Source of the DNA: a virus
Lineage: Duplodnaviria; Caudoviricetes
IMG/VR virus record: IMGVR_UViG_3300020049_006862
Span: 32,001 to 96,000 of that record
DNA: 64,000 nt
Strand: one strand, 5' to 3'
Shown: positions 156-64,000 of the stretch, piece by piece
Position numbering within the stretch: the first letter of the stretch is position 1
How the letters are laid out: each line of letters begins with the position of its first letter
Translations under genes and position numbers: made by a program
Notes under the pieces: model-generated
Databases searched by the model: none
The model's input: the letters and a program-made list of their open reading frames with translations, nothing else
Told to the model about the DNA's origin: nothing

Positions 156-1130
156 ATGACTTTCACAGACTTTTATACACCATCAAAACAAGAGATCCTT
201 AACAAAGTAACCGAAGAATCTATCTTCGAACATTTCTTAAACATAGCAGTAGTTCCTGGGCTTATTAATAGCCCATTCAGGCCGGATTCAAATCCATCCT
301 GTTCCTTCTTACGACTTAGAAATGGTGTACTTTGCTTAGTTGATTGAACTAACTATAATTTCATAGACTGCTTCAAAGCAGTGGCTATGAAAAGGAATTG
401 CCATTACAATGAGGCAATAAGAGCTGTCTATGAAGCTATGGATCAGCTACGCCCGACTAAGATTGAATTCACAAATAACTCCGACAATTATTCACTTAAG
501 ATTAAGCTCAAGGAATGGGACGAGGAATCTAAAGCATATTGGCGCAGGTACTATATTAGTGATAATACTCTTACTAAATTTTCGGTATATCCTGTAAGAG
601 GAGCTTCTATGTCTAGACCAGAATATACTAAGTCTTGGAAATGGTCTAAAGAAGAGCCTATGTTTGCCTATCTTAGAATGAATGGCATCAAACTATATCG
701 TCCTCATTCTGATAAAAAAAGTAAGTGGCGTTCGTCTAATTGGGGAGACGCGCTATTTAATTATCACAATCTTCCGCCCAAAGGTGATGTTCTTATTATT
801 ACTTCTTCCGCTAAAGATGCTATGGTTCTAACCGAATGCGGTTTCCATGCTGTAGCCCCTCCTTCTGAGACAGTTAACATTCCAGAAGATATTGTTGCCG
901 AGCTTAAGTCTCGCTTCTCTCATATCTTTATCTTTATGGATACAGATGAAGCTGGCACTAAAGCCAATATTAAGTTATCCAATATTTTTAATTGTTCCTA
1001 TATTATCATACCTAGTAAATACCACAAAAAAGATATTTCTGATTTTATTTATAAACACGGCCCAGTCAAAACCTTTAGATGCCTAAAGCAATGGATGGTC
1101 CGATCAACCACGAAAAATTATGTCTATTAA
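156..1130 (+). CDS. DNA primase (DnaG-like; Zn-finger-like N-terminus plus TOPRIM), 324 aa, one TGA=Trp at 345
   Basis: ORFs 156..347 and 381..1130 join in frame through TGA (LVD-W-TNYNFIDCFKAV). Motifs SPFRPDSNPSCS, LIITSSAKDAM, FMDTDEAG resemble crAss-type primases. Confidence 0.88.
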
Positions 1131-1275
1131 CGAGGAAAGACTTGCTCAGGTTAAGTCTATGATGGAGACTATCCAAAGAGTCATTACAGATCCGGAAATG
1201 CCTGAATTTCTAAGAGAAGATTTGGAACGCCGGGTTGAAAATGCGCGAGATCTTTTAAATGATATAAAACTTTAA
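1120..1275 (+). CDS. Small hypothetical protein (51 aa)
   Basis: MSINEERLAQVKSMME...DIKL* fills the primase-UDG gap with tight spacing. Confidence 0.6.
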   Translation: MSINEERLAQVKSMMETIQRVITDPEMPEFLREDLERRVENARDLLNDIKL

Positions 1276-1277
1276 TT

Positions 1278-1928
1278 ATGCCTACTAATTGGTCTTTAAT
1301 CGAAGGTCTTAAACCTGCTTGGGATTGTTTTATAACGAAAATATATCCTGAATTCATACAAATGGATGCTCAGAAAATGTGCCCACCACCTCAGAAAGTA
1401 CTTAGAGCATTGCAGGAAACTGATATGGAGCAGATAAAAGTGGTAGTTTTGGGAATGGACCCTTATCATAACGGAGCTGCAACCGGGCTCTGCTTTCATG
1501 TAGAGGAAGGTGCTAAAATTCCTGGATCATTAAGAAATATTCAGAGTAAAATATACGAAGAGACTGGGCAAAAAGGAGATTTAGCTTCGTGGCCAGGGCA
1601 AAATGTGTTAATGTTAAATACGGCCCTTACTACTCAAAGAGGTGTGGCAGGAGCAAACATGAAATTATGGGAACCTTTTACTGAAGAAGTACTGAGGTAT
1701 TTGGATACACAAGACGATATCGTATGGCTTCTTTGGGGAGCTAACGCAAGAGACATAGTGAAGAGGATTATCAAGAATCCGACTCACCGATTTATCATTT
1801 CATCACATCCTTCTCCACTGAGTTATCATAAGCCTCTTGGGAAATATCCTGCTTTTAAGGATAGCGTTCCCTTTGGAAAGGCGAATAAGATCTTGGCGGA
1901 AAAAGGTAAAACACCTATACAGTGGTAG
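1278..1928 (+). CDS. ung: Uracil-DNA glycosylase, family 1
   Basis: Motifs KVVVLGMDPYH, ATGLCF, SLRNI, VLMLNTALT, LLWG, SHPSPLS. Confidence 0.95.
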   Translation: MPTNWSLIEGLKPAWDCFITKIYPEFIQMDAQKMCPPPQKVLRALQETDMEQIKVVVLGMDPYHNGAATGLCFHVEEGAKIPGSLRNIQSKIYEETGQKGDLASWPGQNVLMLNTALTTQRGVAGANMKLWEPFTEEVLRYLDTQDDIVWLLWGANARDIVKRIIKNPTHRFIISSHPSPLSYHKPLGKYPAFKDSVPFGKANKILAEKGKTPIQW

Positions 1929-2419
1929 CACTAGAACTTTCCCAACTTGCTAAACCGCTATTGTTTGACTATGAAAATATCAAGTCAACGGTTTGCGTGT
2001 TTGCGAACACTATCCTATTACACGGAGAAATGAAGAAAGGTGGAAGCCTTTACGAAGAGCTGTCCATTGGATATTTCTGTGACATTAACCAGAACATTGT
2101 TGTGGAGGGCTTGAAAACATCGAAAGATGGATTAAGCGCTTTTTACAACCCTGAGTCGGGGGCTTACGGAATTTGCCAGATTGCGCAGCGTAAGACTGAA
2201 GATCTCTACACTTGGATCGAGTTTCATGCCAAATTAGTAGAAAAATTCAAAGACAAAAACGTTGTTTTGTTTCCGATTAAAATTGACGATGAAACACATT
2301 TCGCAACTACTTTTGTTAACATCGTGGATAATTTTGAAGATTCTTTAATAATCCAAGAACTCGCAAAAGACTTCCCTGATAAGGAAACTATAACTAATCT
2401 CTTCACACTAAAATACTAA
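1922..2419 (+). CDS. Hypothetical protein, possible degenerate gamma-glutamylcyclotransferase (AIG2/GGCT-like)
   Basis: ILLHGEMKKGGSLYEEL resembles the GGCT N-terminal motif (hFVYGTLxxG..nh.lL). Lies next to ATP-grasp, GATase and amidoligase-like genes. Confidence 0.4.
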   Translation: MVALELSQLAKPLLFDYENIKSTVCVFANTILLHGEMKKGGSLYEELSIGYFCDINQNIVVEGLKTSKDGLSAFYNPESGAYGICQIAQRKTEDLYTWIEFHAKLVEKFKDKNVVLFPIKIDDETHFATTFVNIVDNFEDSLIIQELAKDFPDKETITNLFTLKY

Positions 2420-2421
2420 TT

Positions 2422-3228
2422 ATGCTTCTCGCACGAACTTCAGAGCACCAGCGGCATTTTGCCAAAAGATTGAATTCCGGAAAAATTACTGTGAATTTTG
2501 GCTCACCAAAAGTGATCAAAGGACCAGTATTGAATAAGACAGAAAACGTAGTGGCCGCCTTTGATCGGAACAAAGCGAACTTTCTTTTGAATTCCTATGG
2601 AATCAATGTTCCTAAAAGCATTAGGGCACAAGATTTGTTTAACAATGATCAATTGGATTTAAGCCGCTTACAAGTCCGCGGCTTTACATACCCAATCATT
2701 GCCAAAAGAAATGGGCTTTGTACTCACAGAGTCTCGATTCTGAGTAGCATAGACGAATTGATGCGAATTTGCCTTAGTGACAACGTTAAGGAAATCAGCT
2801 TGGAGCAGTACATTCGAAATTGCCAAAGTTATCGGATTTACACGATACCCGCTTTGAGCGGTAAGAGTGTGGATTATACTATCAACGGCCACCCATATCA
2901 AGATTCTTTGGGAATCCCGTTCGCTGTGAAACGTAATTTGGAATTGGCGGAAAACAGCAACATGTATAAAACTAAGAGTTATGAAGTGAACGATGCTCTA
3001 AGCATTGAAAGTATGCCGATAAGCTGGTTGTTGATGCTGCGGAGCGCGGTGAAGGCTACGAGAGTGCTGGGTTTGGATTTTGCTTCAGTTGACATGTTGT
3101 ACAATCCGTATTCTACGGAATACTTTGTAGTTGGAGTTGATCCAGATTGTCCATTTACCTCAAGCAAGGAGATCAACGATCAAATCGCTGAAGCCCTTGT
3201 TCAGGGAATCAAACTCATCCTGCCATGA
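2422..3228 (+). CDS. ATP-grasp (RimK-like) fold protein with degenerate active site
   Basis: GINVPK, YPIIAKR, EQYI..YRI and LGLDFASVD motifs present; expected ExN motif replaced by GVD. Ends at TGA in an ATGA overlap (3258 if read through). Confidence 0.7.
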   Translation: MLLARTSEHQRHFAKRLNSGKITVNFGSPKVIKGPVLNKTENVVAAFDRNKANFLLNSYGINVPKSIRAQDLFNNDQLDLSRLQVRGFTYPIIAKRNGLCTHRVSILSSIDELMRICLSDNVKEISLEQYIRNCQSYRIYTIPALSGKSVDYTINGHPYQDSLGIPFAVKRNLELAENSNMYKTKSYEVNDALSIESMPISWLLMLRSAVKATRVLGLDFASVDMLYNPYSTEYFVVGVDPDCPFTSSKEINDQIAEALVQGIKLILP

Positions 3229-4532
3229 TTACCGTATCGAAACATCAGAGTTCTCTAAAGGAGTCGAAGCTGTTTGAAAGGCTTGATCATTATATGCGAA
3301 AATTGGAAAATGATCCTTCTAATTTTTTAGAAAGAAGTCTGGCCAGTAAAAGAGCTGGAGGGAATCTGAAAATTATAAGAGAAAAAGCTTTTGAAACTCT
3401 TTTAGGCATTTTCGAAAGGGATGATATTTTCAAGCAGGTTACATGGGCAACTGAAGATGAGGCTAACTTAATCATTAGGACCAATATTCACAGAACATTA
3501 GGAGCCAGTATGGATGATAACATGCAGCCTTTTGAAGATTCAGGAATACTGTTTTATCAAGATGGTGTTGTAACGAACTACGCTGAACTCGCTAAGACTT
3601 ACGACATTCCGTATATACCAGGAAGACACTCAGATGCTTATGTTGTGTCTCAACTTTTCTTTAAGTTCGGTGAAGAAATTTTCCAATACTTAGAAGGAGA
3701 GTATGCTTTTGTTTGGACAGTTGAAGATGAGATCTTTACTTACAGTAACATCCCATTCTATATCTACCGGAACAATGAAGAATTCCACCTGACAACTTCT
3801 GTCGTAGTTAGTAATTTTCTACGGACTCTGATTCAATCCTTTCCTGAAGAAGAGCAGCTGAATTATGAAGTAATTGATGAGAAAGAACCGCTTATATGGA
3901 TACATACCGAACATAATGCTCAACCGGAATTAAGTCGCACCTACCCTAACACTTTTAATTTTCATTACTCAGGAATAGGAAATAGATTGTTAGACATTGA
4001 TTTCAAGGAGAACTTGACAATGAATGAACAAGGAGCTATAGTACCTGCGGTAGATAGCTTACCTGTTGTGTTGGAGAAAGGAAAGCTCATGTTTTGGAAT
4101 AAAGATAGATGGGTAGATTTATACACGTACATTACAGTATGTACGGACGAACCTGTCATTTATCCCCTTTATTCCGGGGCGAAATACGAAGTGAGTATTA
4201 CTAGGACTACGTTGAAAAAAATAGAAGCTTCCAACAATTGGGAACGAGCTTTATTTAATAAACTAAGCTTTGATCAATACCGGAAGTATTTTAAAGTGCC
4301 AGAAGTATTGCCTACCTATGTACATCCAGCAGAAGATGAAAAAGAATCATTGTTTGTACTTCTCATAAGAGCGCTTGCTAACTGTCCTCGTTACGAGGAT
4401 TCGTTTCAGCAAGGTATAGCTATCTTAGGAGTCGTGTTCAAAACGATGATGGAAAATCATGAAGATAAATCTGCTCGCCGAATCTACAAGGTACTAAAGA
4501 GATTACATGACTACATAAAAGACAAGCAGTGA
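3225..4532 (+). CDS. Class II glutamine amidotransferase-like protein, apparently inactive
   Basis: NMQPF...FYQDGVVTNYAEL...HSDA...LEGEYAFVW parallels the GATase-II pattern NAHPF...HNGxIxN..EL...DSE...GxYA; no N-terminal Cys. Ends at TGA in a TGATG overlap. Confidence 0.6.
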   Translation: MITVSKHQSSLKESKLFERLDHYMRKLENDPSNFLERSLASKRAGGNLKIIREKAFETLLGIFERDDIFKQVTWATEDEANLIIRTNIHRTLGASMDDNMQPFEDSGILFYQDGVVTNYAELAKTYDIPYIPGRHSDAYVVSQLFFKFGEEIFQYLEGEYAFVWTVEDEIFTYSNIPFYIYRNNEEFHLTTSVVVSNFLRTLIQSFPEEEQLNYEVIDEKEPLIWIHTEHNAQPELSRTYPNTFNFHYSGIGNRLLDIDFKENLTMNEQGAIVPAVDSLPVVLEKGKLMFWNKDRWVDLYTYITVCTDEPVIYPLYSGAKYEVSITRTTLKKIEASNNWERALFNKLSFDQYRKYFKVPEVLPTYVHPAEDEKESLFVLLIRALANCPRYEDSFQQGIAILGVVFKTMMENHEDKSARRIYKVLKRLHDYIKDKQ

Positions 4533-5635
4533 TGGAAACCTACAGAGACATAACTTGCAAACTCAGATCAACAACACCGTTTACCGTTAGCGGTAAAACC
4601 ATTACAGGCAGAGAGGGGAAGTTTGAATTCGACCCTTTGAAAGATGCAATGGTGAATGGTGTCTACGTAAAAGGTGTTACTCTCGAGCTACTTGAGGATA
4701 AGCCTTGGAACCACAATGTATATATGTATGCTGATCCAAAACTACATTTAAATATTGATCAGGATACAATTGACCGAAATAAGATGTTCTACTCCAGCCA
4801 GATTACTGGAAATCCTAAGTTTGTATACGATAAGCCTTACGTAACTTTGAAAAAAGAGTACGAAGGATTAAAGTATTTGACTGAAAAGATAACAACAATT
4901 TGGAGTAGTGGAGTGAATCAATTGTATCCGAACGAAATTCTGTACCGGTTAGGGGGACACTTAAACATAGACATTACTGGCTATTGCGTGAAAACAAAAG
5001 ATTATTATGATCCTACCATTTTTCAAGCGGTTCATCAGTTGTCTGAATTTATCCAGTCAAAAGGATCTTACCGGAGAAACTTCGTCAAAGTTCAAGGACT
5101 TACTGCCCACGAATTAGTCGCAGTTTACACAACATTTTGGAAAGTGCAGGACGCAATAAGAGAGTTTATTCCTCCTTCACTTTGCGCAAAACGGCAACCT
5201 TTCTTAGGAAACGGTCATGATGATTTAATCTTGAAAAGATGGCGTAAGCTGTCCGCTCTCGATTCTCAGTTTCCGCTCACCATCGACTCAGATGGTGCAG
5301 TGACATTTAGCTCCCACCCCGCAACGCCCTGTTGCTTTAGGACAATCGCCTGGCTAACTATCTGTTTAGCCATTGTCCAATACGCTAAATATCATTCTGA
5401 CGAAATCATCATATCCGTAGCTATGGGGTACAAAACTTCCCTTACTCGCGACATACTGAAGTGGGCCGAACAACAATGCACTACTACTGAAGCTACTGAA
5501 TTGCTTCAGAAGATAACTCGGTATGTTCATAACGAAAGTGACGAGCATATCCGAATATTGACCGAAGTACCTCTTCCACAAAGAATGAGATACTACGAAG
5601 ATAATTATTTTGATAAACCCTATAATGAAATATAA
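4529..5635 (+). CDS. Amidoligase (COOH-NH2 ligase)-like protein with degenerate motifs
   Basis: GGHLNI corresponds to CGxHVH; AVTFSSHPAT..FRTIAWLTICLAIVQYA corresponds to TxEFRxHxxT..KI..W..IC.A.V.YA; gene context agrees. Confidence 0.55.
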   Translation: MMETYRDITCKLRSTTPFTVSGKTITGREGKFEFDPLKDAMVNGVYVKGVTLELLEDKPWNHNVYMYADPKLHLNIDQDTIDRNKMFYSSQITGNPKFVYDKPYVTLKKEYEGLKYLTEKITTIWSSGVNQLYPNEILYRLGGHLNIDITGYCVKTKDYYDPTIFQAVHQLSEFIQSKGSYRRNFVKVQGLTAHELVAVYTTFWKVQDAIREFIPPSLCAKRQPFLGNGHDDLILKRWRKLSALDSQFPLTIDSDGAVTFSSHPATPCCFRTIAWLTICLAIVQYAKYHSDEIIISVAMGYKTSLTRDILKWAEQQCTTTEATELLQKITRYVHNESDEHIRILTEVPLPQRMRYYEDNYFDKPYNEI

Positions 5636-6014
5636 GAATAAAATCAGTGGAGGCTTCAGATCCGGACTTGAAGAATGATGCTCGGAACACCTACACAAAA
5701 ACGATATCAAATTCTGGTATGAGGGTAAAAAGTTTACTCTTGTACCAGGATTTGAATCGACTAGTCCCTCATTTGAAGTAGTCGGAAAAACTAAGAAATA
5801 TAAATCAGTTACTACTAAGATCCGTCCAATAACATATACGCCCGATTTTGTCGGGGATTCTTGAGTAATAGAGACTAAGGGATTTTTAACCCCTGACGCC
5901 AAACTCAAATGGAAGTTATTTAAAAAGTATCTAACTGATAATAAGATATTTTGTCTGTTATTCATGCCTAGAAATAGGAAGCAGATAGAAGATACAATTA
6001 ATACTATATTATGA
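5625..6014 (+). CDS. Endonuclease I-like / PD-(D/E)xK resolvase-type nuclease (missing from ORF track); TGA=Trp at 5676 and 5862
   Basis: FRSGLEE-W-C...YE...ITYTPDFVGDS-W-VIETKGF...LKWKLFKKYL. Third TGA (6012) lies in an ATGA overlap with the next gene; read-through would end at 6068. Confidence 0.85.
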
Positions 6015-7036
6015 AACACTGAGAAGATCCCAAAAGGTCAGAAATCTATTATCAAACTCCTGGAATAAGCAACTCGCTTCTAAAGCTGGTTAGCACTCCT
6101 CTACTTCTTCAACAGAAATTAAAAGGCGAGCATGTACAAGCTGACAAAGAACATTTTAGAGTAGGAAAGGCTATCGACTGTTTACTTACATCACCAGAAC
6201 TCTGAGAAGCAGAGTTTGATGTAGTATCAGCTGAACGTCCTTCCGGTCTCTTAGGCCTCTTTGCAGATAACTTGCCAGAAGGTCTAACACCTCTCTCCTC
6301 GCTCGAGCTATACGAAGAAGCATACAATGCTTCGGGCTTCAAGCTTCCACTAGAAAGAGTAGTTAACATCTTCTGATCTAAAGGTGATAATGTATTTTAC
6401 TATGAGAAAAAATACGAAAAATCAAACAAAACCATCTTATCACGAGGTGAGATGGAGAAGGTCGAACTTGCAGTAGATCAGCTAAAGAAGGCTGATTATA
6501 CACACAAGTATTTTTGGCCTGCTGATAACACACGATTGATTACTCAAGTACCCATATACTTTAAGTACAAAGATTTAGATTGTAAAGGCCTTCTTGATGG
6601 CATCGTTATTGATGACGAAAAGAAAACTATACTTCCGTATGATTTGAAATCGTCTTCTTGGGGAATTAGAAACTTCCCTCTCGTTTATAAAAGATTTAAA
6701 TACTATAGACAAGCAGCGTTTTATCAACACGCTGTTCTTAATCATTTTATTCCAGAAGAAAATTTACAAGGTTACGAACTATTACCATTCACTTTTATAG
6801 TGACTTCCTCGAAACGAGGAATACCGGAAATGCCTATTATCTATAAAGTAGAATCTCAGGACTTCAGATTTGGTATGCAGGAAATAGATGACGCAATAGA
6901 ACAATATAAGTGGCACGTAGAGAACAACTACTTTGACATGTCTAAGGAGCAGTTTGAAAACAGCTCCGAATATTGGGTTAGTTATTTTTCACCCTCGAAA
7001 GAGGATCAAATCTTTGAAGATGAAACAATCAGTTAA
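6011..7036 (+). CDS. PD-(D/E)xK exonuclease (RecE/ExoVIII-like), 341 aa; TGA=Trp at 6020, 6203, 6374
   Basis: Continuous frame from ATG 6011 (ISNSLLK, FRVGKAIDCLL) into track ORF 6452..7036 (KGLLDGIVID, YDLKS, YYRQAAFY). Confidence 0.85.
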
Positions 7037-54520: not shown

Positions 54521-54877
54521 TTACTCCTTCTCTTTTTTGGAGTCCTCATCCGTAATTTCGGAGAGTATTTTTTGTGCTTTCTTTGCACTTATCACTGTAA
54601 GCTTCTTGACTATGGCTAATGCCCAATCAATTAAGTGCATACCTGTAAGTCCAACTAAGAAAGCTACACCATCGTTTAGTTGGTTATATTCTGCTTCTAG
54701 AACTCTAGAAGCTAAGTGACTTAGCGGATCAGTAAGGTATGCTGCCATAAGAGTACCGGAAAAAATATAACTAAAGGCTAACCAAAAGTTCATTTTTTGT
54801 TTACTCCGCAGCAGCATTACCGTACCACCTGCTGCGCCCGCTAGAGCAGCATTTAATTTCATGTTTAAGAAAAACAT
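54521..54877 (-). CDS. Putative holin-like membrane protein (three predicted TM segments)
   Basis: AGAAGG.V, FSGTLMAAYL, VAFLVGLTG hydrophobic segments; charged C-terminal tail. Confidence 0.55.
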   Translation of the reverse strand: MFFLNMKLNAALAGAAGGTVMLLRSKQKMNFWLAFSYIFSGTLMAAYLTDPLSHLASRVLEAEYNQLNDGVAFLVGLTGMHLIDWALAIVKKLTVISAKKAQKILSEITDEDSKKEKE

Positions 54878-54909: not shown

Positions 54910-57900
54910 CTAGTCAAAATCATAAATCAATTCCGGGATTTGTTATCGTAAAGGCTTTTTATCCTCTACTTCTTACACTTCTTGTTCGTGTAAGTCCAGC
55001 ATATATTTTCCCTCTATAAAGAGGGTCGAGCACTCGTGGGAGAATTATATTTATTCATCTCCTATGCGTTACACTGTTTCTGAACCTTTCGTAATTTCAG
55101 AACTTAGCACGGTATTGGGAATCTCACCGTTCACCGTTTTTGCTCGATTTTTGACTGAGGCAAATTTCATAAGCCTGATTATATAGTTGTTAAATTCTTC
55201 GAGACTTGAATTCGATTTAGCCCTATTGCAGAATTTGCAAGATGGGGCAACATTGCCTTGAACATACCCTTTAGAAGAGTCTATTCTGTCAACGCCGTTA
55301 TGAGGTATTGAAGCTTGGCAATTTGTTTTCCTGTGTATCTGTGAAGGTTTGATACCACAGTAAGAGCATGGACTAACTATCAGAGAACGAAACTCATCTT
55401 GAGTTATTGTAAATTCTCTATTATCTTTTTTTGCACGGGCACGATAACGAACATATAAACCTCTAACATCACAATCATAAGGATCTGTGTAGTAAAATTT
55501 ATGTATATGTCCACAAGATTTGGACTTAAGATTTTTTACCGCGTCCCATTGCACTTTAAATATAGTGCCGCAAGAACATTTAACTTCCACTACAGGAATT
55601 TTATAATCTTTAAGTTTATCTTTTTTTAATGTGTATCCAGGAAAACTAAGAACTGTTAGTTCATTATATTTAAGTCCTATGAATTCTTTATAATCAGTCG
55701 TATTGTACATTTCGCTTTCAACGAAATTTTTAGGTTGTTTTTTTAATTTCAACATTTATTACAATAATTTGAGTTTTGTACATACCACAGCGTGTTACGT
55801 CTTTGATCCAGATACCAAAAGAGTCCTGTACAAAGATTTCGTAAGCACCGATTAAGCCAGCAACAGAAGCACCTTTAGCAGGGCCTGTTGGAGTCCAGGT
55901 ACCGTCGATGTGTCCCCAGCGGAAAGTGTTCTCAGTTTTCAGAACAGAGATGTTGTTGTCAACACCGTCAGAACCGAAGTCCAAGAAAGTCATACGCATA
56001 GAGTCAATTGGATACTCAGGGTATTGTGGGTGCATACGCTTGCAAGCTTTACGAGAATCGTAAAGTGGGTTACGCATAAGTGATACCTCAATACCTTCTG
56101 GGCCGTACATGGACCATTCGCATGAGCTCGTTAAACTCATACCGTACAGTTGTATCAATTCTGTACTGCTTTATGTTGCCATAAAGATTAGACTATATCA
56201 TCCTCAAAAATGAGGGTTCCCGTTTCGAGCCACTTGGCTCTACCATTATGTAAAGATTTTAAAGTAAGAGGTTTAATTCTAAGTTTGTGCTGCATAGAAT
56301 CCACTCTTCGGACATAAGGTTCTACTATTTTTATAAATTTTCTTGCTTCTCTAGTGCCACAACAAAGTTCGTAGTAAGCATTCTTTTTAACTTGATAAAA
56401 ACTAACTTTTCATACTTCATTAAAGTAATCTATAATTAATTGATTTTCTTCCTTAGATATGTTGGTATGAAGTCGGAGCATTGTTGCTCTTGTTGAACCA
56501 TCAGGATATTTTAACATCCCTAATGAGCCATCATCCATGTATCATATTGCAAGTCCTAAAGCATTGAGCTTATTTAACTGTTTGCGATTAGCAATTTTTT
56601 TAACTGGTCTATATAATATTTTTCTATATAGCTTAGTAAATTTATAAACGTTAGTTGTAAACCGATAAGCAGGAAAACCGTTAGATGTTAGAAATTTAAT
56701 TTCTGACGTTTTTATACCAGATTTTCTTAACAATTTAGCTTTCCATTCCAAGTAATCTTTCTGCTTTTCACAGTGCTGTACTCGGAGCTGTCCGTATTTA
56801 TCTAGGTTCCCATCTCCTAATATCATACTTAAGAATAAGTGTCGGGATTTTTCTTTAATCTTTGTCATACAAGTTCGAATACATATAGTATCGATTTTTT
56901 ATTTTTTAGTCGTTGAACCTTCCTCCTATAGGAGGCTTGGCTGCTGATTGTCCCGGAGGGAGATCCCAGCAATTAAAGAACTTTAATCACTACCACGGAG
57001 TAGAAATAGTGAGTGTACTGCGCACCAAAAGAAAGGTGGCGTGGGTCGCCATCGCCAGCAGAACGAGTGAAGTGGCTATCTACAGTCAAGAAAGAAGAAG
57101 CTTCGGAAGCGAGCATGTCGTGGAACATTATTGCAAAAATCTTCGAGTAGAATCGTTAATTCTACCCCGGCTTTTTTAAGCCTGCTATATATTACTATAT
57201 AGATGAGATCATATCATCCTCTTCAATTGAAGAGGTTTCCTGTTTCGGAGCACTTGCTCCTACTCCCTTTCGGGATGATCGTTGAGCGTCATACTTAGAA
57301 ATCCTTTTGCATTGAATTAAAAACTCTTTGACAGTTTGATCTCTTTTCATATAATTACAAACATTGCAACAAGCTACCGAATTATCATCAGTATAACCGC
57401 AAGTGTTATCCATTCTGTCTACTCCATTATAATATAATGGGTCTCCAGTTAGTTTATCTTTACGACTGTTTGATTTTGTTTTGCCGCAATAAAGGCAAGG
57501 AGAAAGTATTAGTTTGGTAAAAACTTCTCTTGAGAGTTCAAAAGAGTAGTTACGATCTAAAGATGCTTTCTTATAAGCATTATAGATGTATCTATATCTT
57601 TCGACATCTGTTCTGTTATCCCTATACGTTTTTACAGAACAAGAATTACAACCTACAAAACCCCTTTTATCAAAGTATCTTTGCTTATAAGCAAGATCTT
57701 TAGAAGTCATAGAAAGTTTTTTACCGCATGAACATTGTACTTCTCAAGTACCATGCCCATTATCTAACCACTTGGTTATTGTTAATTTTCCTAGTTTTTG
57801 TCCTAATTTCATTTGTATCATAATAAGTATTTTCGTTGCTGATTGTCCTCCTATTTCTAGGGTGGGAGATCCCAGCAGTTAAGGAAATTTTTCGACTTAC

Positions 57901-60022
57901 CTCACGATAAGAAGGGCCCAATGTGTTAAGCCTAATGTACCAGTGATCGCAGTTACTTTACGATTGTTAACGTTTTCACGAGAGAAGAAGATATCCATCA
58001 GATAATCTTTCAAGCGAGAAACAGTCAAAGCAGAATTGTAATATTCGCAATTATTATTATTCAGTTAGAGTCGTTAATTCTAACTCGGGAATGGTTACCC
58101 AGCTCATAGTTTCCTATGAGATTAGACTATATCATTTTCCTGTAGATGTTTATCTAAGGAAATTTCTCATTTCGAGTCACTTGACTCTACTCCCTTTCGG
58201 GATAGTCGTTGAAGGTTCCAATCATAAATTTTTTCTATATGCTTAAGAAAATCTTTAGGAGATTTAGTATACTTAGCTAGATTACAGTTTTGACAACAAG
58301 GTACTACATTATCTTGTATGTATCCTAAATTGTTGTCAAGTCTATCTATTCCAGTATAATTATAGGTCATTAGTGATGTTCTAATACAGGTATTAGTTGG
58401 TTTATCTCCACAGTATACACAAGAAGACGAAAACAATTTCGCTGCCTCCTCTAATGATAACGTAAATTCTAAACCTCTGTTTTTAGCACTTTTCCTATAT
58501 CTACAATATATAGTAGAATATTTTTCAGCACTGTTCATCTTTTGATCTCTTAAGAAGTCGTATCTACATTTTTGACATCCTGCAAAGCCTAGCTTTGCTA
58601 ATGACATACACGCTCTTGAAACAAAAGTAGTCGGGCCTTTAGCTGTATTTCCACAAGAACATTTTAGTATATATTGTCCTTTGTGACCTATTACAGTAAA
58701 TTCACCTATTTTAGTGCCTATTGGATATTTCATAATTTATTTTTTAGCTTCCCTGCTGATTGCCCCTATTTTTAGAATTGTTACAGTTTATTGTATCTAA
58801 AACTTAGCGGGGGGTCCCAGCAATTAGAGAAATTATTCGATTACTATTACTAGTAAAAGGGACCAAATATTAATCCAAGAATCTTTAAGTTGTTCGCGTA
58901 CACCTGGCAGTGTGTTGTTCCCTTTCGTTCGTTAAACGAAAGGCGTACTATCCAACTTTAAATAGTACTGCCTTATATTACTATAAGGATCAGGTCATAT
59001 CACCTTCCTATTAGGAAGTTTCCCGTTTCGGATTCACTTGAATCCTACGCCATAAAGGCTGACCGTCGAACGTTCCCTTTTCAGGGCTTCGCTGCTGATT
59101 GTCCTCTTCATAAGAAGTAGGAGATCCCAGACAATTAGAGAAATTTGCAATATTGTATTACTACAATATGGGGCCCAATTTGACCCGTTTTGATCCAGTA
59201 GCCTGACTGCGAAGGACGAGTTTGCTTGATACCTAACCAACCTTGATATTCCTGAGACATGTACATTTCAGAGTACATGCGAGATTCAGCCATAGGAAGG
59301 AAAGAGTTAACTTTCTTCATCTTCTGAGTGTGAGGATCAGTGTACAGGAATTCTACGCCCAATCGGCCGCCTTCTCTCCAAGCTTTGTCAGTGATCGTCA
59401 GTTTCTGAGCGAATTCACCAATTTGGCTTTCCAGTTTGAACAGGTTAGGAGATTGTTGTGTACCGAAGTATGGGTTAGCTTCTTGCTGAACAGAGGTCCA
59501 TCCTTTAGAAAATTCACGACCTACTTCCAAAAGTGAAGGAGGGCAGAAAACTGTAGGATTGTCACCTTGCAGTTCGAGGGTGTAGATGTAACCTGTGCCA
59601 TCTGGAACAGAATCACCGATGATAGCCATCGGGTAAGAGTTATCTTCACCAAGCAGAACATCTGGTTGTGCGTAATAGTCGATGTCCAATTTTACACGGA
59701 AACGTGTATTGTTTAAGCCCGGAGCGTCGTTGCCTGCTTCGAGATTCTCGAGAACAATAGCAATACGTTCTTCAGCTCCCTGCATAGTCCAGCGGAACAC
59801 ATCGCTGTTGATCATTTGAACATTGCCTGGGTTGATACCTTGAGCAGTCAGCAATTTACCTGTGAACAGGTCTGACTGAGAAGAATAAATTTTTGTGAGG
59901 GTGCCCATGAATTCATGCGGCTTGCCCGTGTCATAAGCAGCGCCAAGATAATTGGAGTCGATAAAATTACCCCCAAATCCTTGGTAGTGCTTGATAATCA
60001 TGTTACTTCTAGCGCTAGCCAT
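54910..60022 (-). CDS. Major capsid protein, 489 aa after splicing six exons: 60022-59183, 58907-58873, 58047-57929, 57133-57006, 56107-55784, 54933-54910
   Basis: Exons join in frame (IKTG|PGVREQLKDSWI|EYYN...TGTLG|SIMFH...FGAQYTHY|YGPEGIEV...DVTRCG|ELIYDFD*). Position follows portal and scaffold genes. Confidence 0.9.
54934..55783 (-). mobile_element. Group I intron 5 of the capsid gene (850 nt; endonuclease ORF in the P1 loop)
   Basis: 5' exon ends in U, intron ends in G; P1 CTGTGGT/GCCTCAG, P3 TCGAGC/GCTCGA, P7 GCATA/TATGC. Confidence 0.8.
55069..55755 (-). CDS. Intron-encoded HNH-type homing endonuclease
   Basis: CSCG, CSYCG, NGVDRIDSSKGY..GNV..C..CN.AK. Confidence 0.88.
   Translation of the reverse strand: MLKLKKQPKNFVESEMYNTTDYKEFIGLKYNELTVLSFPGYTLKKDKLKDYKIPVVEVKCSCGTIFKVQWDAVKNLKSKSCGHIHKFYYTDPYDCDVRGLYVRYRARAKKDNREFTITQDEFRSLIVSPCSYCGIKPSQIHRKTNCQASIPHNGVDRIDSSKGYVQGNVAPSCKFCNRAKSNSSLEEFNNYIIRLMKFASVKNRAKTVNGEIPNTVLSSEITKGSETV
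56108..57005 (-). mobile_element. Group I intron 4 of the capsid gene (898 nt)
   Basis: P1 CACTAT/GTAGTG, P10 TACGG/CCGTG, AATTGCTGGG...AATCAGCAG core, P7 GACTA/TAGTC, terminal G. Confidence 0.88.
56188..56868 (-). CDS. Intron-encoded LAGLIDADG homing endonuclease, 226 aa; TGA=Trp at 56542 and 56410
   Basis: SMILGDG, Q.DYL.WK and LGLAI-W-YMDDGS motifs. Confidence 0.88.
57134..57928 (-). mobile_element. Group I intron 3 of the capsid gene (795 nt)
   Basis: P1 GGCT/GGCC, P10 CAAT/ATTG, P3 TTTCCT/AGGAAA, P7 GATCA/TGATC, terminal G. Confidence 0.88.
57195..57821 (-). CDS. Intron-encoded HNH-type homing endonuclease, 208 aa; TGA=Trp at 57744
   Basis: GQKLGKLTI...GT-W-EVQCSCG N-terminus joins track ORF 57195..57710 (CLYCG, NGVDRMDN..GY..DN..ACC..CN.MK). 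Confidence 0.85.
58048..58872 (-). mobile_element. Group I intron 2 of the capsid gene (825 nt)
   Basis: P1 GGAT/GTCC, P10 CGAATAT/ATATTTG, P3 TTTCTC/GAGAAA, P7 GACTA/TAGTC, terminal G. Confidence 0.88.
58122..58733 (-). CDS. Intron-encoded HNH-type homing endonuclease (ends 58167 if TGA is a stop, 58122 if Trp)
   Basis: CSCG, CVYCG, GIDRLDNNLGY..DNVVPCC..CN.AK. Confidence 0.85.
58908..59182 (-). mobile_element. Group I intron 1 of the capsid gene (275 nt, no ORF)
   Basis: P1 GGGT/GCCC, AATCAGCAG core, P3 TTTCTC/GGGAAA, P7 GGTCA/TGACC, terminal G. Confidence 0.88.
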
Positions 60023-61046
60023 TAGTTACTTGTTGTTTTAAAATAGTCGCTCAATCGATAGATTTTTGTGCTTGTGTAGGATTAGAGCTGCCCCCTACTT
60101 TAGCTTTTACTGAAGAGACCTCGCCTAACTTACTTTTTAAGTCTTCGAGGGCTACTGATTTTCCTTTAGATGTGAATCGACCGAAATCAAATCCAGTCTT
60201 TGGATCATATTCTGATATGATGTCTGCTAATTGAGCCAGGTGATCGTAATTACTAGAAATAGTATTCAAAGCTCTAGTGAAATCTGTTGTAGTGATACCA
60301 TCACGCGTTACAGGATTAATCATAAATGCTTTTAACTTGTTTTTACGATCATCAGGAATACTAGGAAGTTTTTCTACTGCCTGTGTAATACTTTCCCGAT
60401 ATTGTTTAGCTGCAGCTTCCTCATCTTTAAGAAGATTGTCTTGAGCTGCTTTGTAAATACCTTTTAGTTCTTCGTAAGCTTCTTCAGCCTCATCAGCCAA
60501 AGATTCAGAAAGCTCTAAAGAAGATATTAACTTATCAATCTTAACGTCAGAATAATTTCCAGTCTTTTTATAATAATCTCTAAGTATCTCTTTTTGAGTA
60601 GAGACGTTATCCAAATCAACTTCTTCTAAGGCAGAAACTTTGGTTTGGCGAGCATAGAACTCATCAATATGTTTCCCGCCCGCCATAGCGTATTCTGCAA
60701 TAGCGTGAAAACTTGGAGGCAACGAAGAAATAAGACTTTGAGCTGCTTCTGCTCTAAGACTAGTTTTAGTCTTATTCAAAGATTCAGCAATAGTTTTTAA
60801 ATCTACCTTTTCAGGTTCTTCATCGTCTACAAGAATGTTTTGTGATTTTAGGAGATTATATATGTCTTTGTAATCTGTTTCGTCCTCATCACTGTCGTCA
60901 TCTGAAGGATCTTCCGGTTCAGGAGTAGGTACGGGATTATCGATGTCGTCTATAATAGGATCATCATTTCCTAGTCCAGAAAAGTCAGGATCGAGAATCA
61001 TCCCGAAGTCAAAGACATCATCTGGTACTATATTTTCGTTATTCAT
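60015..61046 (-). CDS. Acidic scaffold-like protein between portal and capsid genes (343 aa if TGA 60051 is Trp)
   Basis: Asp/Glu/Pro-rich N-terminus and helical core; read-through gives SID-W-ATILKQQ overlapping the capsid gene start. Confidence 0.7.
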
Positions 61047-63418
61047 TATTTTGTTGTTGTTTTAGGTTTAGATGCAGAGATCTTCTCTCGAGATTTCCTA
61101 TCTAATTCTTTTTGTTTAGAAGCTTGTTCAATCTTCCATTTTTCCATAGCCATGCTGTCTTCATGGATCATTGCCTGAAGCTGGAGCTTTCCTTGATCGG
61201 AATCGTTCGCTGCTGCGATAACTCTTTGGTTCATCATCTTCTCACGTTCGAGCTGCATCATAGCTTCAATCTGAGCTTGTTGTGCTTCTTGCTGAGCCCT
61301 AATTTGCTCCATCTGCTGCTCTTGGAATTTCTTCTCAGAAGCTTCAATATGCTTTTCGAGTTGAGTCGAAGACGTAGCTTTGTATAATTTAATAAGGTCT
61401 GAGAAGTTTGCTTTGTCATTTTGAATAAGCGGCTGAGCCAGATTCTTCAAATCACGGAACAGTGCTTCATCATCAACTAAAGAAGAGACAAAAACAGCGA
61501 TATCCGCATTTGTTAAATCATCAGGACTTAACTTCAAGGTTTGAATAGACAAATCATCCAGCACATATTGCTTAATAATCGACTTATTTCTCCAACAAGA
61601 GATAGCACACTGTACTAAACCATTCAAAACTTCTTCCCAAATTCTTTCGTGAGGATAAAAATAAACAGATTCAGTAATAGTAGCGCTCTGTAAGATATTA
61701 GCTTGAGCATTAGAAACAAGTTCAGCGGAGCTGATCTGCCCTTCACGCTGTCTAGTAATACCAGCAACATCAGAAATTTGAGCATCAATAGCATCTAAGA
61801 TGTTGATGTAATTTGCAATTTGCTGCGTATTAGACATATCTATAGACTGGGATACCATGCCTCTATTGTATGTACCTGCCTCTTCAGCATTACTAAGAGG
61901 ATTGAAGAATTCTATATTCATCTGTTTGAGATAATAAATAGTCTTCTCTAAACCAATTTTATCTGAGATTTGAGACATGTCAAACTTGTATACCTTACCC
62001 TGATCTGTAGCAATAAGCTTCTTAAACTTATCCATAACAATCAAGTACAGATACTGGAAAGGACGCATACGATCCATTAACGAAACATTAGGTCCGTTAA
62101 GATTATTGTAAACGCAGCCATAATAGCCGAGGCTTACTTCGTACGGATTGTCTAATGATCTGTACTGGTATTCTTTAGGGCCAATATGACAGTAAATATC
62201 GGAACCAATTTTCACCGCTTGCCAAATTTGTGGAATCCATTCCCATTCTAAAGAATAGTTTTCCCAAACATATTTAGTAATTTTGTTACCCCAATGATTC
62301 TTTTCTATTGTTTTTTCGGCGGTAGCCGGAACAACAAAATCCTCAGAAACAATGTCCATTTGCTTGTCACCATATTCGTTAGTGTAAGTAATGAATCCTA
62401 CTTTCTGTAAAGATCTCCATTCTACATGCACTACAGGAATATCTCCAAGCAGAGGATTGGAATAAGCGCCTTGAATGTCGTGGTCTCCAGAACCATTTAA
62501 GTAGTTATCGTAAACATCTCTGGTCCGAACTGGAGGTTCTTTTTTGTAGAAATCTGGAAATTCGTCCATTACTCCACTTAGAGAACCTTCTAATTTTTCA
62601 ATTTCCTCTTCCGTTAGGTCATCATGAAATTGATCTATGATGTCTGAAGCTACCATTTTAGCTTTATAACCAGCGAATAAACCTTTTTGAACATACTTTT
62701 CATCCATACCTTTATAATAAAAAGTATTTAGAGTATTGAGTATTTTTACAGTAGGTTCTCCATTAATTACGCCAACCCAGATCATCTCGTCGCCGCCAAT
62801 TAAACCGTGTTTAAATCCTTCATTCTTTTTCTCCTTCAGATTATCTTTTCTAATAAGATATCCTAAGATGTCTGAAGCTAATTTTTCTCGAGCTTCTTGA
62901 TAAGTAAAGGACATATAGTGTTCTAATTCAGCTGGATCTACGAGACCTTCTGTATTTACTTCTTCGTCAGATTGTTGAATCTTTTGTACTTCCGCGCTAA
63001 TTTGCGCATTTAAGTATTTTTTTAACAGCTCCTTTTTGTGCAATTCCTTAGATCTGATGCCGTCGGAGTTAACCAAAACTGTTCTGTAGCGAAAAGGTGT
63101 TTTTAATTCCTCTCCAGTCAAAATTCCGATTTTATTCGGAGTCTTGTTGTAAGGCATAATCTGATCTTCAAACTGTCCAACTTCTACGCCAAAAGGATTT
63201 AACTCACGTTCAAAATCTTTTTGATTAATTACGTTGTTGTACAGTTGGTAGTTAGCATACTTTCGATCATAATCTGTGTTACCACCAGGAGAAGGAGAGA
63301 AAGTATTAGAATATTGAACAATGTGATCAACCATCAGTTTTGCCCACGCAAAATCATCTTTACTTTTTTCCGCGTAGCTAAGCCGCTGCTTTGGAAAAAG
63401 CGTATTCATGTTCGTCAT
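61046..63418 (-). CDS. Portal protein
   Basis: 790 aa; FPKQRL, NYQLYNN, L.GEE, W.S..KVG, EWEWI..IW, SLMDRM.PFQYLY, GITRQREGQI. Confidence 0.92.
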   Translation of the reverse strand: MTNMNTLFPKQRLSYAEKSKDDFAWAKLMVDHIVQYSNTFSPSPGGNTDYDRKYANYQLYNNVINQKDFERELNPFGVEVGQFEDQIMPYNKTPNKIGILTGEELKTPFRYRTVLVNSDGIRSKELHKKELLKKYLNAQISAEVQKIQQSDEEVNTEGLVDPAELEHYMSFTYQEAREKLASDILGYLIRKDNLKEKKNEGFKHGLIGGDEMIWVGVINGEPTVKILNTLNTFYYKGMDEKYVQKGLFAGYKAKMVASDIIDQFHDDLTEEEIEKLEGSLSGVMDEFPDFYKKEPPVRTRDVYDNYLNGSGDHDIQGAYSNPLLGDIPVVHVEWRSLQKVGFITYTNEYGDKQMDIVSEDFVVPATAEKTIEKNHWGNKITKYVWENYSLEWEWIPQIWQAVKIGSDIYCHIGPKEYQYRSLDNPYEVSLGYYGCVYNNLNGPNVSLMDRMRPFQYLYLIVMDKFKKLIATDQGKVYKFDMSQISDKIGLEKTIYYLKQMNIEFFNPLSNAEEAGTYNRGMVSQSIDMSNTQQIANYINILDAIDAQISDVAGITRQREGQISSAELVSNAQANILQSATITESVYFYPHERIWEEVLNGLVQCAISCWRNKSIIKQYVLDDLSIQTLKLSPDDLTNADIAVFVSSLVDDEALFRDLKNLAQPLIQNDKANFSDLIKLYKATSSTQLEKHIEASEKKFQEQQMEQIRAQQEAQQAQIEAMMQLEREKMMNQRVIAAANDSDQGKLQLQAMIHEDSMAMEKWKIEQASKQKELDRKSREKISASKPKTTTK

Positions 63419-63426
63419 TGCTTATA

Positions 63427-64000
63427 CTATAAAAAATTGTCACTCGTTATACGAGCGTTCGGGAATACGAATTTATTAGCCGATATAAACTTGGTGATAT
63501 CATCCACAATTTTACTATCTTCTATAATTGTTTTCTTGTATTGATTATGGGTTTCTATTAACCCTACAATACACCCCATGAATCCCATTATGGAGTCAAA
63601 GTTGCCTTCTAAATTAAAGGCAGCCATTTCTTGTAACAAGGCCCTGTCTCAGATAAAATCTATATTTCTATATGTTCTATCGTCCCTCTCAAACTTAACT
63701 TCAAGTAGCCAGTCGCGTATGTACTGAATGCCTTCCATCTTCATAACTCTAGAAGACATCGGATAACCATAAGTTACCGAAGGCCCGGTCATAAAAGATG
63801 CTTTCTTATTAAAGATAGTAGTAGGTTGTTTACAAAGCAAGTCTAACCTCTTTATCTTTTCGAAATACTCCTTCACGTTACCACGAACATTTTCGAAGTA
63901 GATCTTTGCGTTACCATAAAACAAAGAAAGCTTGTGAAGTATATCGTTCACTATATGCCTTCCCGCGTAGGGCCTACCTCTATATACTGCAACCAATTCA
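63427..64000 (-). CDS. Terminase large subunit, C-terminal nuclease part (5' truncated); TGA=Trp at 63649
   Basis: VAVYRGRP...YGNAKIYFEN...FI-W-DRALLQEM..FN.EGNFD; directly upstream of the portal gene. Confidence 0.88.

Follow-up and report, generated by a model that had tools for sequence, protein, structure and literature searches.

Uneven use of TGA as a tryptophan codon among the gene blocks of a crAss-like phage

Introduction

Why would a phage that reads TGA as tryptophan (Trp) admit this codon to some genes and keep it out of others? The question is raised by a 64,000-nt stretch of viral DNA, analyzed here as a whole and called the window, which forms the core of the genome of a divergent crAss-like phage that decodes TGA as tryptophan. 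The phage clade is environmental, and the portal protein is only ~30% identical to those of gut crAss phages. In alignments, TGA-coded residues match TGG or TGA of relatives at conserved positions; W5886 of a giant open reading frame (ORF) and W1084 of the muzzle protein are TGA here and TGG in all aligned relatives, and W65 and W122 of an exonuclease are further examples at conserved tryptophans. An initial annotation had proposed that TGA load is gene-selective and may act as a translational gate, in which the number of TGAs could set a gene's dose or timing.

Results

TGA use along the genome

TGA accounted for 19% of Trp codons genome-wide (84/451), and the window held 57 TGAs among 279 Trp codons in 48 genes. 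Third-position A was favored over G elsewhere at 67-71% (0.19 for TGA versus 0.67-0.71), and the use of TGA below this A3 preference everywhere indicates general selection against it. It was noted that TGA use is uneven: genes for DNA replication and nucleases often carry the codon, whereas the capsid, portal, and uracil-DNA glycosylase (UDG) genes lack it; the giant ORF and both genome ends are nearly free of it as well. At several gene junctions, TGA still resembles a stop.

The gene-selective load exceeded chance (permutation G-test; p = 5e-5 in the window, p = 2e-4 in the whole genome). Earlier counts of TGA over total Trp codons were reproduced for the portal (0/11), capsid (0/9), UDG (0/7), giant ORF (5/57), NTase-like ORF (5/5), HU/IHF-like ORF (6/8), GIY-YIG gene (2/2), and LAGLIDADG gene (2/4), while the exonuclease retained its three TGAs among seven Trp codons rather than six. 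The per-gene A3 bias that the initial annotation had named as a competing cause did not explain the pattern: in logistic models with per-gene A3/(A3+G3), a codon-adaptation index (CAI), and log length, residual heterogeneity persisted (p = 5e-4), and none of the three accounted for the unevenness. CAI, an expression proxy, accounted for little of the TGA variation. Three small ORFs carried much of the gene-level signal (p = 0.06-0.08 without them).

Through penalized segmentation, TGA density was found to shift by contiguous block, in about seven segments, and not gene by gene, so that the load is block-selective too. TGA made up 38% of Trp codons in the PolA-to-primase block, 80% (8/10) in the resolvase and the 5' part of the exonuclease, 45% in the GIY-YIG/muzzle/ring/fiber block, and 6-11% in the UDG block, the giant ORF, other tail and head genes, and both genome ends. 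The codon is concentrated in replication and recombination genes, the muzzle-ring-fiber block, and homing-endonuclease ORFs. The earlier division between TGA-avoiding structural genes and TGA-carrying nucleases, nucleic-acid binders, and toxic enzymes did not hold: PolA, the helicases, the primase, and the muzzle, ring-1, and tail proteins also carry TGA, the enzyme UDG has none, and the giant ORF is poor. Within blocks, the counts were compatible with a binomial (p = 0.10 for the replication module; p = 0.34 for the tail module without two small ORFs), giving no support to TGA number setting dose.

Replication and recombination genes

The replication features of the window lie on the plus strand. 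In the primase-like gene (156..1130; Pfam Toprim_2), the single TGA among eight Trp codons is the first of them, at codon 64, inside the region aligned to relatives. No relative has TGA in the UDG gene (1278..1928; Pfam UDG), the count being 0/16 across four independent recoded lineages. A four-gene block that includes a GATase (1922..5635) has gene bodies without TGA; its only TGAs, at 3226-3228 and 4530-4532, stand at extreme 3' ends and overlap the next start (ATGA / GTGATG), and are probably real stops.

The most TGA-rich conserved gene encodes a resolvase-like nuclease (5523..6068; endonuclease I / DUF1064 in Pfam, Holliday-junction resolvase in PHROGs), whose orthologs have 16/25 TGA across six lineages. 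The earlier figure of at least 2/4 agrees with a recount of 5/7 for the longest ORF; counting from M35 (5625), the probable start, gives 3/5, and the figure is 2/4 if the last TGA, which overlaps the start of the following gene as ATGA, is a stop. The three TGAs of the PD-(D/E)XK exonuclease (6011..7036; Pfam DUF3799) are its first three Trp codons. Its orthologs contain 2-4 TGA in 9/12 relatives; most recoded lineages have TGA at W65 and W122, and all have TGG at W301.

TGA-rich or TGA-free status was conserved in related recoded phages, as the initial annotation had suggested checking. Six recoded relatives showed TGA at 30-50% in replication genes versus 0-9% in structural genes (Fisher exact test; p = 2.6e-6 to 0.006), with p-values pooled over relatives being optimistic because the lineages are not fully independent. 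Gene ranks in the replication module were kept (permutation p = 2e-4; 1e-3 with relatives alone), with cross-lineage TGA fractions of 0% for UDG, about 20% for PolA, and about 65% for the resolvase. In each lineage, no conserved gene was richer in TGA than the resolvase-like and exonuclease genes, and ortholog-restricted counts gave the same pattern. Between two close relatives, TGA<->TGG flips (2/58) were roughly as frequent as the remaining synonymous A<->G changes (80/1334); the conserved densities thus reflect equilibrium and not frozen ancestry.

Structural genes and homing endonucleases

The features of this section are on the minus strand. The giant ORF (9995..28528; 6177 codons) has TGA at codons 109, 2347, 2382, 2404, and 5886. 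Its earlier identification as an RNA polymerase (RNAP) was not upheld, as no RNAP family match was obtained in any of the libraries searched; the only library matches were to an AAA_30 domain, and a single DFDVD motif is present. Five TGAs across such a length imply that decoding would be efficient when the protein is made, contrary to the suggestion of inefficient decoding.

The TGA-rich block delimited by segmentation (30013..43282; 27/60 Trp codons TGA) contains the GIY-YIG gene, muzzle, ring 1, the HU-like ORF, ring 2, a tail protein, the NTase-like ORF, and the fiber cluster; muzzle and ring identities come from Pfam crAss_MUZ, CrAss_Ring_1, and CrAss_Ring_2. The GIY-YIG gene (30417..31016; Pfam GIY-YIG) is homing-endonuclease-like and free-standing. 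Between ring 2 and ring 1, a 161-codon ORF (37451..37936) has positional homologs in all relatives, each with only 1-3 Trp; its HU/IHF label is weakly suggested by a Bac_DNA_binding match (E = 0.016) and a low-confidence AF2 fold (pLDDT 50). The NTase-like ORF (40909..41412), with a weak NTP_transf_2 match, has nine distant full-length homologs and a conserved GS...SDxD motif, and its TGA-coded W96 and W106 align with W/Y. A 745-codon fiber-cluster gene (41399..43636; TGA/Trp 5/13) had no family match in Pfam or PHROGs. The gene table and segmentation place a TGA-poor tail/head-proximal block at 43641..54877 (5/53).

The major capsid gene (55730..60022; Pfam Crass_capsid, PHROG major head protein) was resolved with an intact relative into five exons at 60022-59183, ~58913-58870, 58046-57930, 57134-57006, and ~56110-55730, with a group I intron match at 58971-59192 within the gene. 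Its introns bear the LAGLIDADG gene (56188-56868) and two HNH genes (57195-57821 and 58122-58733; TGA/Trp 1/2 each). All five homing-endonuclease ORFs together reached 6/11, compared to 37/202 in other structural genes (Fisher exact test; p = 0.01). The portal gene (61046..63418) has 0-1 TGA in relatives.

Discussion

Probable selection against a costly codon

The explanation that we prefer, at slightly below an even chance, is that TGA may be a costly, suppressor-dependent codon purged by selection from high-demand genes, a mutation-selection balance and not a designed dosage code. UGA decoding would need the phage tRNA and would compete with termination by host RF2, so each TGA would risk premature termination. 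Purifying selection would then purge TGA from genes needed in bulk or before suppressor tRNA builds up, and purging would be weaker in enzymes required at low dose, ORFs of mobile elements, and rapidly evolving tail genes. Because an aborted chain is cheapest near the 5' end, TGA could persist there. The final 20 codons of genes held 14 TGAs where about 6 would be expected, and several of these overlap the following start as ATGA, which suggests that RF2 still acts on TGA. The highest densities did not clearly surpass the value of about 0.66 expected from neutral A3 usage, at 54% for the first Trp codon (71-73% in genes with both codons) and 64-66% for the resolvase; the 8/10 resolvase-exonuclease patch has too few codons for this comparison.

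Some observations run against the cost model. The portal lacks TGA and ring 1 has 2/6, though similar copies per virion are expected; UDG is an enzyme, yet TGA-free in all lineages. In structural genes the 5' gradient was absent and the first Trp was TGA in only 4/35 in this phage, which pure cost would not predict. The TGAs of the giant ORF argue for efficient late decoding, and the cost per TGA may be small.

A possible translational gate and other alternatives

An adaptive gate on middle genes is possible, though we consider it clearly under even likelihood: TGAs near the 5' end would hold back the synthesis of replication and recombination proteins until tRNA(UCA) accumulates, chiefly that of the resolvase and exonuclease, the conserved genes richest in the codon. 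It amounts to the published recoding gate moved from late genes to the replication module, and the concept has precedent (10.1101/2021.08.26.457843; PMC7886860). Of the 17 replication genes carrying both codons, 12 have TGA as their first Trp codon, against an expected 5.9 (p about 0.002), and nine of these 12 TGAs lie inside regions aligned to relatives; across six relatives the figure is 32/44 (19.4 expected). No comparable 5' effect was found for AAA/AAG, GAA/GAG, CAA/CAG, TTA/TTG, or AGA/AGG, and the alignment column that holds the early TGA of a given gene, such as the primase, differs between lineages. The tRNA(UCA) gene, found in this phage and five relatives, lies about 5.3 kb past the window end; the genome ends with the tRNA region are TGA-poor (9/114 versus 75/337; p = 4e-4), which would allow decoding to be turned on in the course of infection, as had been proposed. 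However, TGA fractions never clearly exceeded neutrality, genes with at least one TGA were no more numerous than under random allocation (a hand estimate from counts), UDG and the four-gene block are ungated within the module, and tRNA(UCA) was not detectable in three recoded relatives. In relatives, codon position accounted for the 5' enrichment as well as first-Trp status did; the enrichment tracked log codon position rather than the first Trp as such, which is the exact prediction of a termination-cost gradient. The initial observation is confirmed and its gate interpretation partly supported; selection against a slow codon in highly expressed genes, its own simpler alternative, is at least as likely.

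Mosaic ancestry, with blocks recombined from phages at different recoding stages or from standard-code sources and not yet equilibrated, appears unlikely. It would suit the changes by contiguous block, the TGA-rich mobile ORFs, and the muzzle and ring genes, which are TGA-richer here than their orthologs in the relative G001 (9/47 versus 4/74). Orthologs of the TGA-free 1922-5635 block and of most of the TGA-rich fiber cluster (39044-43636) were not found among the relatives compared, and tail-fiber genes are often exchanged between phages. However, the replication pattern and the TGA-free UDG, capsid, and portal recur at 35-50% protein identity despite ongoing TGA<->TGG turnover, which would have erased history alone, and A3 bias does not set the TGA-rich blocks apart. 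Chance, or an artifact of mis-called ORFs or starts or of table-4 readthrough of TGA stops, is a highly improbable source of the apparent TGA-rich genes, for although table 4 gives 6-12% spurious TGA tryptophans on non-recoded relatives, two of the five TGAs in ORF 5523-6068 precede its probable start with one possibly its stop, and much signal comes from three small ORFs, all three have homologs with W or Y at TGA-coded positions, and the ortholog alignments and small permutation p-values largely refute it.

Comparison with known recoded phages

For bacterial codon usage, the theory of position-dependent selection against nonsense (processivity) errors predicts tolerance of error-prone codons at 5' ends and their avoidance in highly expressed genes. 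This theory fits the replication genes here; it concerns ordinary sense codons, whereas the codon here is a reassigned stop with termination as a direct competitor.

Phages with contiguous blocks with and without in-frame stops in one genome were described with Mgcod (bioRxiv 10.1101/2022.06.29.495998), and, as in such blocks under different codes, some junctions here apparently still use TGA as a stop. Unlike in those phages, the blocks here are small and interleaved, and TGG outnumbers TGA even in the rich ones. Similar to the crAss-like phages of Yutin et al. 2021 (PMC7886860) and the zeta crAss-like phage Lera (PMC12386605), this phage belongs to the part of Crassvirales that uses TGA=Trp or TAG=Gln; further shared features are a code that changes between phylogenetically close phages, suppressor tRNAs that cannot always be detected, and conserved genes with introns and inteins. 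Recoding in those studies was recognized by stops within TerL, the capsid gene, and the portal, and was confined to parts with putative late genes; a capsid/portal screen of this type would miss the present phage, which has no TGA in either.

Borges et al. (bioRxiv 10.1101/2021.08.26.457843; Nat Microbiol 2022) reported TGA-recoded Agate, Jade, and Sapphire and TAG-recoded crAss-like, Lak, and Garnet gut phages, and proposed recoding as a translational timer. The likeness extends to a standard stop read as an amino acid in a presumed standard-code host, a genome recoded in part only with close relatives on the standard code, and a suppressor tRNA in the standard-code-compatible part. Their recoded codons are concentrated in structural and lysis genes, with replication genes standard or variable; in contrast, this phage and six relatives have them mainly in genes for replication and recombination, and capsid and portal here are free of them. 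The passages of that report consulted do not describe the 5'-proximal placement seen here. The gate idea is already published (Yutin 2021; Borges 2021/22), and what appears new is the 5' placement and a reversed module preference, since the pattern published for other recoded phages favors late genes.

Gene content and phage affiliation

The IMG/VR virus record of the genome under study (G000) is 110,204 bp long, with the window spanning its bases 32001-96000; coordinates refer to the window unless marked as genome positions. Plus-strand genes extend up to approximately 9857 and minus-strand genes run from 9995 on. Genes were called under table 4 (TGA read as tryptophan) by a codon-score dynamic programme blind to Trp codons, and four calls were patched by hand. 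The resulting set comprised 121 genes with 84 TGA and 367 TGG codons, with 57 TGA and 222 TGG in the window.

Crassvirales hallmarks were present: one structural block, adjoining the giant ORF (9995-28528, minus strand), encodes capsid, portal, ring, and muzzle proteins of the crAss type. Pfam matches included Crass_capsid, CrAss_Ring_1, CrAss_Ring_2, and crAss_MUZ, with CrAss_Ring_3_4 below the cut-off. The portal was approximately 30% identical to those of gut crAss phages (cr-phage portals) and 40-66% identical to many environmental contigs. A single portal sequence as query returned no related loci; these were recovered with a portal alignment as query, and twelve relatives' records (G001-G012) were taken in full. 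The major capsid gene (55730-60022, minus strand), which the initial annotation had described as split, is indeed divided into five exons by four introns with a group I intron match. Three of these introns carry homing-endonuclease ORFs (two HNH, one LAGLIDADG), and a fourth HNH ORF lies at 55069-55755, after the last capsid exon. In the Pfam/PHROGs annotation TerL was split into at least two pieces, a C-terminal part (63427-64794, minus strand) ending inside the window and an N-terminal ORF beyond it (65178-66701, minus strand). The latter contains an intein with Hint and LAGLIDADG domains.

Through Pfam and PHROGs, the replication module was found to hold PolA, an SF2 helicase, a DnaB-like helicase, an AAA_24 ATPase, a Toprim primase, and UDG, together with a resolvase-like nuclease (endonuclease I/DUF1064) and a DUF3799 PD-(D/E)XK exonuclease. 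No lysis genes were identified in G000 by the same annotation. The giant ORF (6177 codons) had no Pfam, PHROG, PDB, or phage-genome match beyond AAA_30, and no RNAP family match. This AAA_30/AAA_19 domain, a helicase-type P-loop at 24392-24904 (minus strand; residues 1209-1379), is the sole library-recognisable domain of the 6177-residue protein. One DFDVD motif occurs, at residue 4082, and the position beside the tail block would fit the tentative crAss virion RNAP label.

TGA as tryptophan and its uneven use among genes

Alignments to relatives indicate that TGA is decoded as tryptophan in G000. At conserved columns, in-frame TGA aligned with TGG or TGA in the relatives, including W5886 of the giant ORF, W1084 of the muzzle protein, W65 and W122 of the exonuclease, and others. 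Readings as Sec, Cys, or Gly were ruled out, as the alignments show Trp and the one tRNA reported by ARAGORN, a tRNA(ACA), lies far from the window. When recomputed from the sequence, the initial annotation's counts of TGA among Trp codons were all reproduced or nearly so.

TGA was unevenly distributed among genes (permutation G-test; p = 5e-5 for the window, p = 2e-4 for the genome). It accounted for only 0.19 of Trp codons compared to an A preference of 0.67-0.71 at other third positions, and TGA is thus disfavoured overall. Per-gene A3 bias (the share of A among A/G third positions), the codon-adaptation index built on head genes, and log length explained little and were rejected as the cause of the unevenness. 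The residual heterogeneity (p = 5e-4) shows that the TGA fraction is not wholly due to A3 bias, the outcome on which the initial proposal would have fallen. Without three small ORFs, which supply much of the signal, the gene-level p value was 0.06-0.08.

Homology indicates that all three of these ORFs are real genes. The ORF at 40909-41412 (5/5 TGA) has distant full-length homologs, a GS...SDxD nucleotidyltransferase-like motif, and W/Y at the TGA-coded W96 and W106, so that its TGA-coded positions are likewise supported by homolog alignment; a word-index search with this ORF found no homologs, and an exhaustive search found weak ones. The ORF at 37451-37936 (6/8) sits between ring 2 and ring 1, and each of the relatives has a positional homolog there. 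The ORF's tentative HU/IHF label corresponds to a Bac_DNA_binding match below the cut-off (E = 0.016, 15.9 bits), its AF2 model has a pLDDT of 50, and it had no PDB sequence match. The ORF at 5523-6068 (5/7) matches resolvase families. Antisense to this TGA-rich resolvase-like gene, a 229-codon open frame (217 codons under table 11) occupies 5366-6055 on the minus strand, where the plus-strand TGAs of the gene read TCA.

Placement of TGA at less conserved Trp sites, as expected under translational accuracy, was rejected, with Trp present in relatives at 41% of TGA compared to 45% of TGG sites. Among all called genes, the base 5' of TGA was A in 46% of cases versus 28% before TGG (p = 0.005), and the base 3' was C in 6% versus 16% after TGG (p = 0.03). 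This flanking-base bias may stem from decoding context or from local A-richness.

Block layout of TGA

A penalised multi-segment fit over the ordered Trp codons replaced a single binary segmentation, which yielded no split because the pattern alternates. TGA made up 9% of Trp codons in the genome below 22.2 kb and 38% from PolA to the 5' part of primase. Within the window, it fell to 6% at 516-5462 (the 3' part of primase, UDG, and a four-gene block), reached 8/10 at 5559-6374 (resolvase and the 5' part of the exonuclease), and was 8% at 6515-29737, including the giant ORF. TGA then rose to 45% at 30013-43282 (GIY-YIG, muzzle, rings, and fibres) and was 11% past 43534, a stretch that takes in the head genes and reaches the end of the genome; the capsid (0/9) and portal (0/11) had none.

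The axis of TGA use is the block or module. The initial annotation had opposed abundant structural proteins that avoid TGA to TGA-bearing nucleases, nucleic-acid binders, and potentially toxic enzymes, and this split did not hold: TGA occurs in PolA, the helicases, primase, muzzle, and ring 1 and is largely absent from UDG and the giant ORF. Within modules, counts were near binomial (replication, p = 0.10; tail, p = 0.34 without two small ORFs). Homing-endonuclease ORFs were richer in TGA than other structural genes (6/11 vs 37/202; p = 0.01). The genome ends were depleted compared to the middle (9 TGA among 114 Trp codons vs 75 among 337; Fisher exact test, p = 4e-4) and are compatible with the standard code. 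By analogy, these TGA-poor ends are presumed to hold early genes.

Conservation of TGA use in relatives

Counts for the relatives were taken from tblastn alignments read with table 4, in aligned ortholog regions only, because calling genes under table 4 produced spurious in-frame TGA in genomes that are not recoded. Six independent recoded lineages (G001, G002/3/12, G005, G006, G007, and G009/11) possessed 30-50% TGA in replication genes and 0-9% in structural genes (Fisher exact test; p = 2.6e-6 to 0.006). The non-recoded relatives G004, G008, and G010 had 0/33, 1/26, and 0/16 in replication genes and 0 in structural genes. By gene calls made here, G006 carried TGA at 25/100 Trp codons in its replication half and 0/121 in its structural half. 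It was noted that in-frame TGA in this relative (loci L108-L112) is restricted to one strand block, with no detectable tRNA(UCA).

Gene ranks in the replication module were conserved, running from UDG (0/23) through PolA (22%), the helicases (approximately 31%), primase (36%), and exonuclease (44%) to resolvase (66%). A stratified permutation supported this ranking (p = 2e-4; relatives only, 1e-3), the relatives being phylogenetically linked, which makes pooled p-values optimistic. The ortholog check proposed in the initial annotation, that TGA-rich status be kept across orthologs, was therefore borne out, as both ranks and module contrast recur in recoded relatives. Between G002 and G003, which share 90% identical codons, 2 TGA/TGG flips occurred among 58 shared Trp codons, and A<->G changes at other two-fold sites stood at 6.0%. 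These comparisons argue that the conserved TGA densities are not frozen ancestry. Muzzle, ring, and other tail orthologs possess more TGA in G000 than in the relatives, and recoding appears to have spread further in G000.

Position of TGA within genes

Among G000 replication genes with both codons, the first Trp was TGA in 12/17 compared to 5.9 expected (p about 0.002), and 9 of these 12 sit within regions aligned to relatives. This 5' test was post hoc for G000, and the relatives serve as replication; six showed the same direction, with 32/44 first Trp codons being TGA compared to 19.4 expected. Pooled, TGA was the first Trp in 42/78, and later ranks had 25-28%. By codon index, the TGA share was 54% (1-20), 28% (21-100), and 16% (101-400). 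In the relatives log codon position predicted the effect as well as being first, and in G000 being first was the better predictor. A general 5' ramp of A-ending codons was rejected, as five other A/G codon pairs had no such effect.

Structural genes lacked 5' enrichment of TGA. In those of G000 (9995-61046, minus strand), the first Trp was TGA in only 4/35 and the second and third in 32-36%, the reverse of the replication genes and a trend not seen in the relatives.

Decoding machinery and probable residual TGA stops

ARAGORN found no suppressor tRNA in G000. Three relatives encode a 94-nt tRNA(UCA) with a long variable arm, A1-U72, and G73; a match to its anticodon arm lies in G000, at genome 101383-101398. 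The corresponding candidate tRNA(UCA) lies at genome 101332-101425 (minus strand), approximately 5.3 kb beyond the window end, with the anticodon loop CUUCAAA and a tRNA-Sec-like fold match in Rfam (26 bits, below the gathering score). A covariance model built from the tRNA(UCA) sequences detected homologs in G009 and G011, giving five relatives altogether, and had no match in the recoded G005, G006, and G007. With relaxed thresholds, ARAGORN found no tRNA(UCA) in G000, G005, G006, G007, and G009.

The candidate is flanked by a GroEL-like gene on one side and small ORFs on the other, beside a tmRNA match, at the right end of the genome where TGA is scarce. This tmRNA-like RNA (genome 100470-100928, minus strand; 68470-68928 in window coordinates, outside the window; L141:171-629) scored 49.2 bits against an Rfam gathering score of 47, contains a long insertion, and adjoins both the tRNA(UCA) and the GroEL-like gene. 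ARAGORN's single reported tRNA in the genome, tRNA(ACA), also lies outside the window (genome 8416-8490, plus strand; L142:417-490). It has the loop UUACAAU, one G.G mismatch in the anticodon stem, and an Rfam tRNA match of 44.8 bits; such an A34 tRNA is of an unusual kind.

Under table 4 the stops were TAA (95) and TAG (25), with none TGA. The last 20 codons of genes held 14 TGAs compared to about 6 expected, several of them (at 3226, 4530, and 6012) in overlaps with the following start. At these ATGA or GTGATG overlaps (3225-3228, 4529-4535, and 6011-6014) the upstream gene's in-frame TGA coincides with the next start. At these junctions TGA is probably still a stop, though sense elsewhere in the same strand block, and it seems to survive as a stop codon in G000.

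Explanations for the distribution of TGA

From the initial proposal of a gene-selective gate, the selectivity of TGA beyond A3 bias and its conservation in orthologs stand, and the division into toxic and abundant products does not. The best reading, to which we give slightly less than an even chance, is that TGA is a costly, suppressor-dependent codon. UGA decoding would rely on the phage tRNA and compete with RF2, and selection would consequently purge TGA from genes needed in bulk or early. The codon would be tolerated in enzymes needed at low dose, in mobile ORFs, and in tail genes that evolve fast, and most of all near the 5' end, where an aborted chain may be cheapest. The observed TGA fractions attain the neutral A3 expectation and are not clearly above it, as tolerance, but not positive selection, would predict.

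An adaptive gate is possible but doubtful. Here TGA would act, in this environmental crAss-like clade, as a 5'-proximal translational lock on replication and recombination genes, opened by the phage tRNA(UCA). In the same doubtful reading, the lock would be strongest on the resolvase and PD-(D/E)XK exonuclease, with capsid, portal, and UDG left in the standard code. Such a lock would fit the frequent TGA at the first Trp codon, the place of the two nucleases at the head of the ranking, and the low TGA use of the genome ends around the tRNA; however, the data do not require it, and UDG and the suppressor-less relatives are left unexplained. Mosaic ancestry probably plays a part in the fibre cluster and in the four-gene block but cannot account for a pattern conserved across lineages, and we regard it as improbable. 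An artefact is very improbable, being largely excluded by the ortholog alignments.

Significance and comparison with known recoded phages

For annotation, reading under table 11 leaves PolA, the helicases, both nucleases (resolvase and exonuclease), and several tail genes truncated or missed. The clade combines recoded and non-recoded relatives with genes whose conserved TGA levels span 0% to 65%, and it offers a natural test case that could separate an adaptive gate from plain cost-driven codon avoidance. The current view takes stop-codon recoding in phages as a timer for late and lysis genes, and detection usually relies on stops within the TerL, capsid, and portal genes. Recoded phages escape such screens in a clade whose replication genes are recoded and whose capsid and portal genes stay in the standard code.

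PMC7886860 and 10.1101/2021.08.26.457843 already present translational gating by recoded stops, echoed in PMC12386605. The cases described in these papers are late structural and lysis genes that are recoded, with replication genes standard or variable. In contrast to the late-gene gate of the Borges and Yutin model, the expected excess in structural genes was not found in G000 (capsid 0/9, portal 0/11). The preference is reversed in the relatives, with 0-9% TGA in structural genes and 30-50% in replication genes, and a late-gene gate is therefore not universal. If the lock reading were true, middle genes would be the gated ones, opposite to the late-gene or lysis gate proposed for all other recoded phages. 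Partial recoding of phages is known; what is new here is that partial TGA recoding favours the replication module and 5'-proximal sites.
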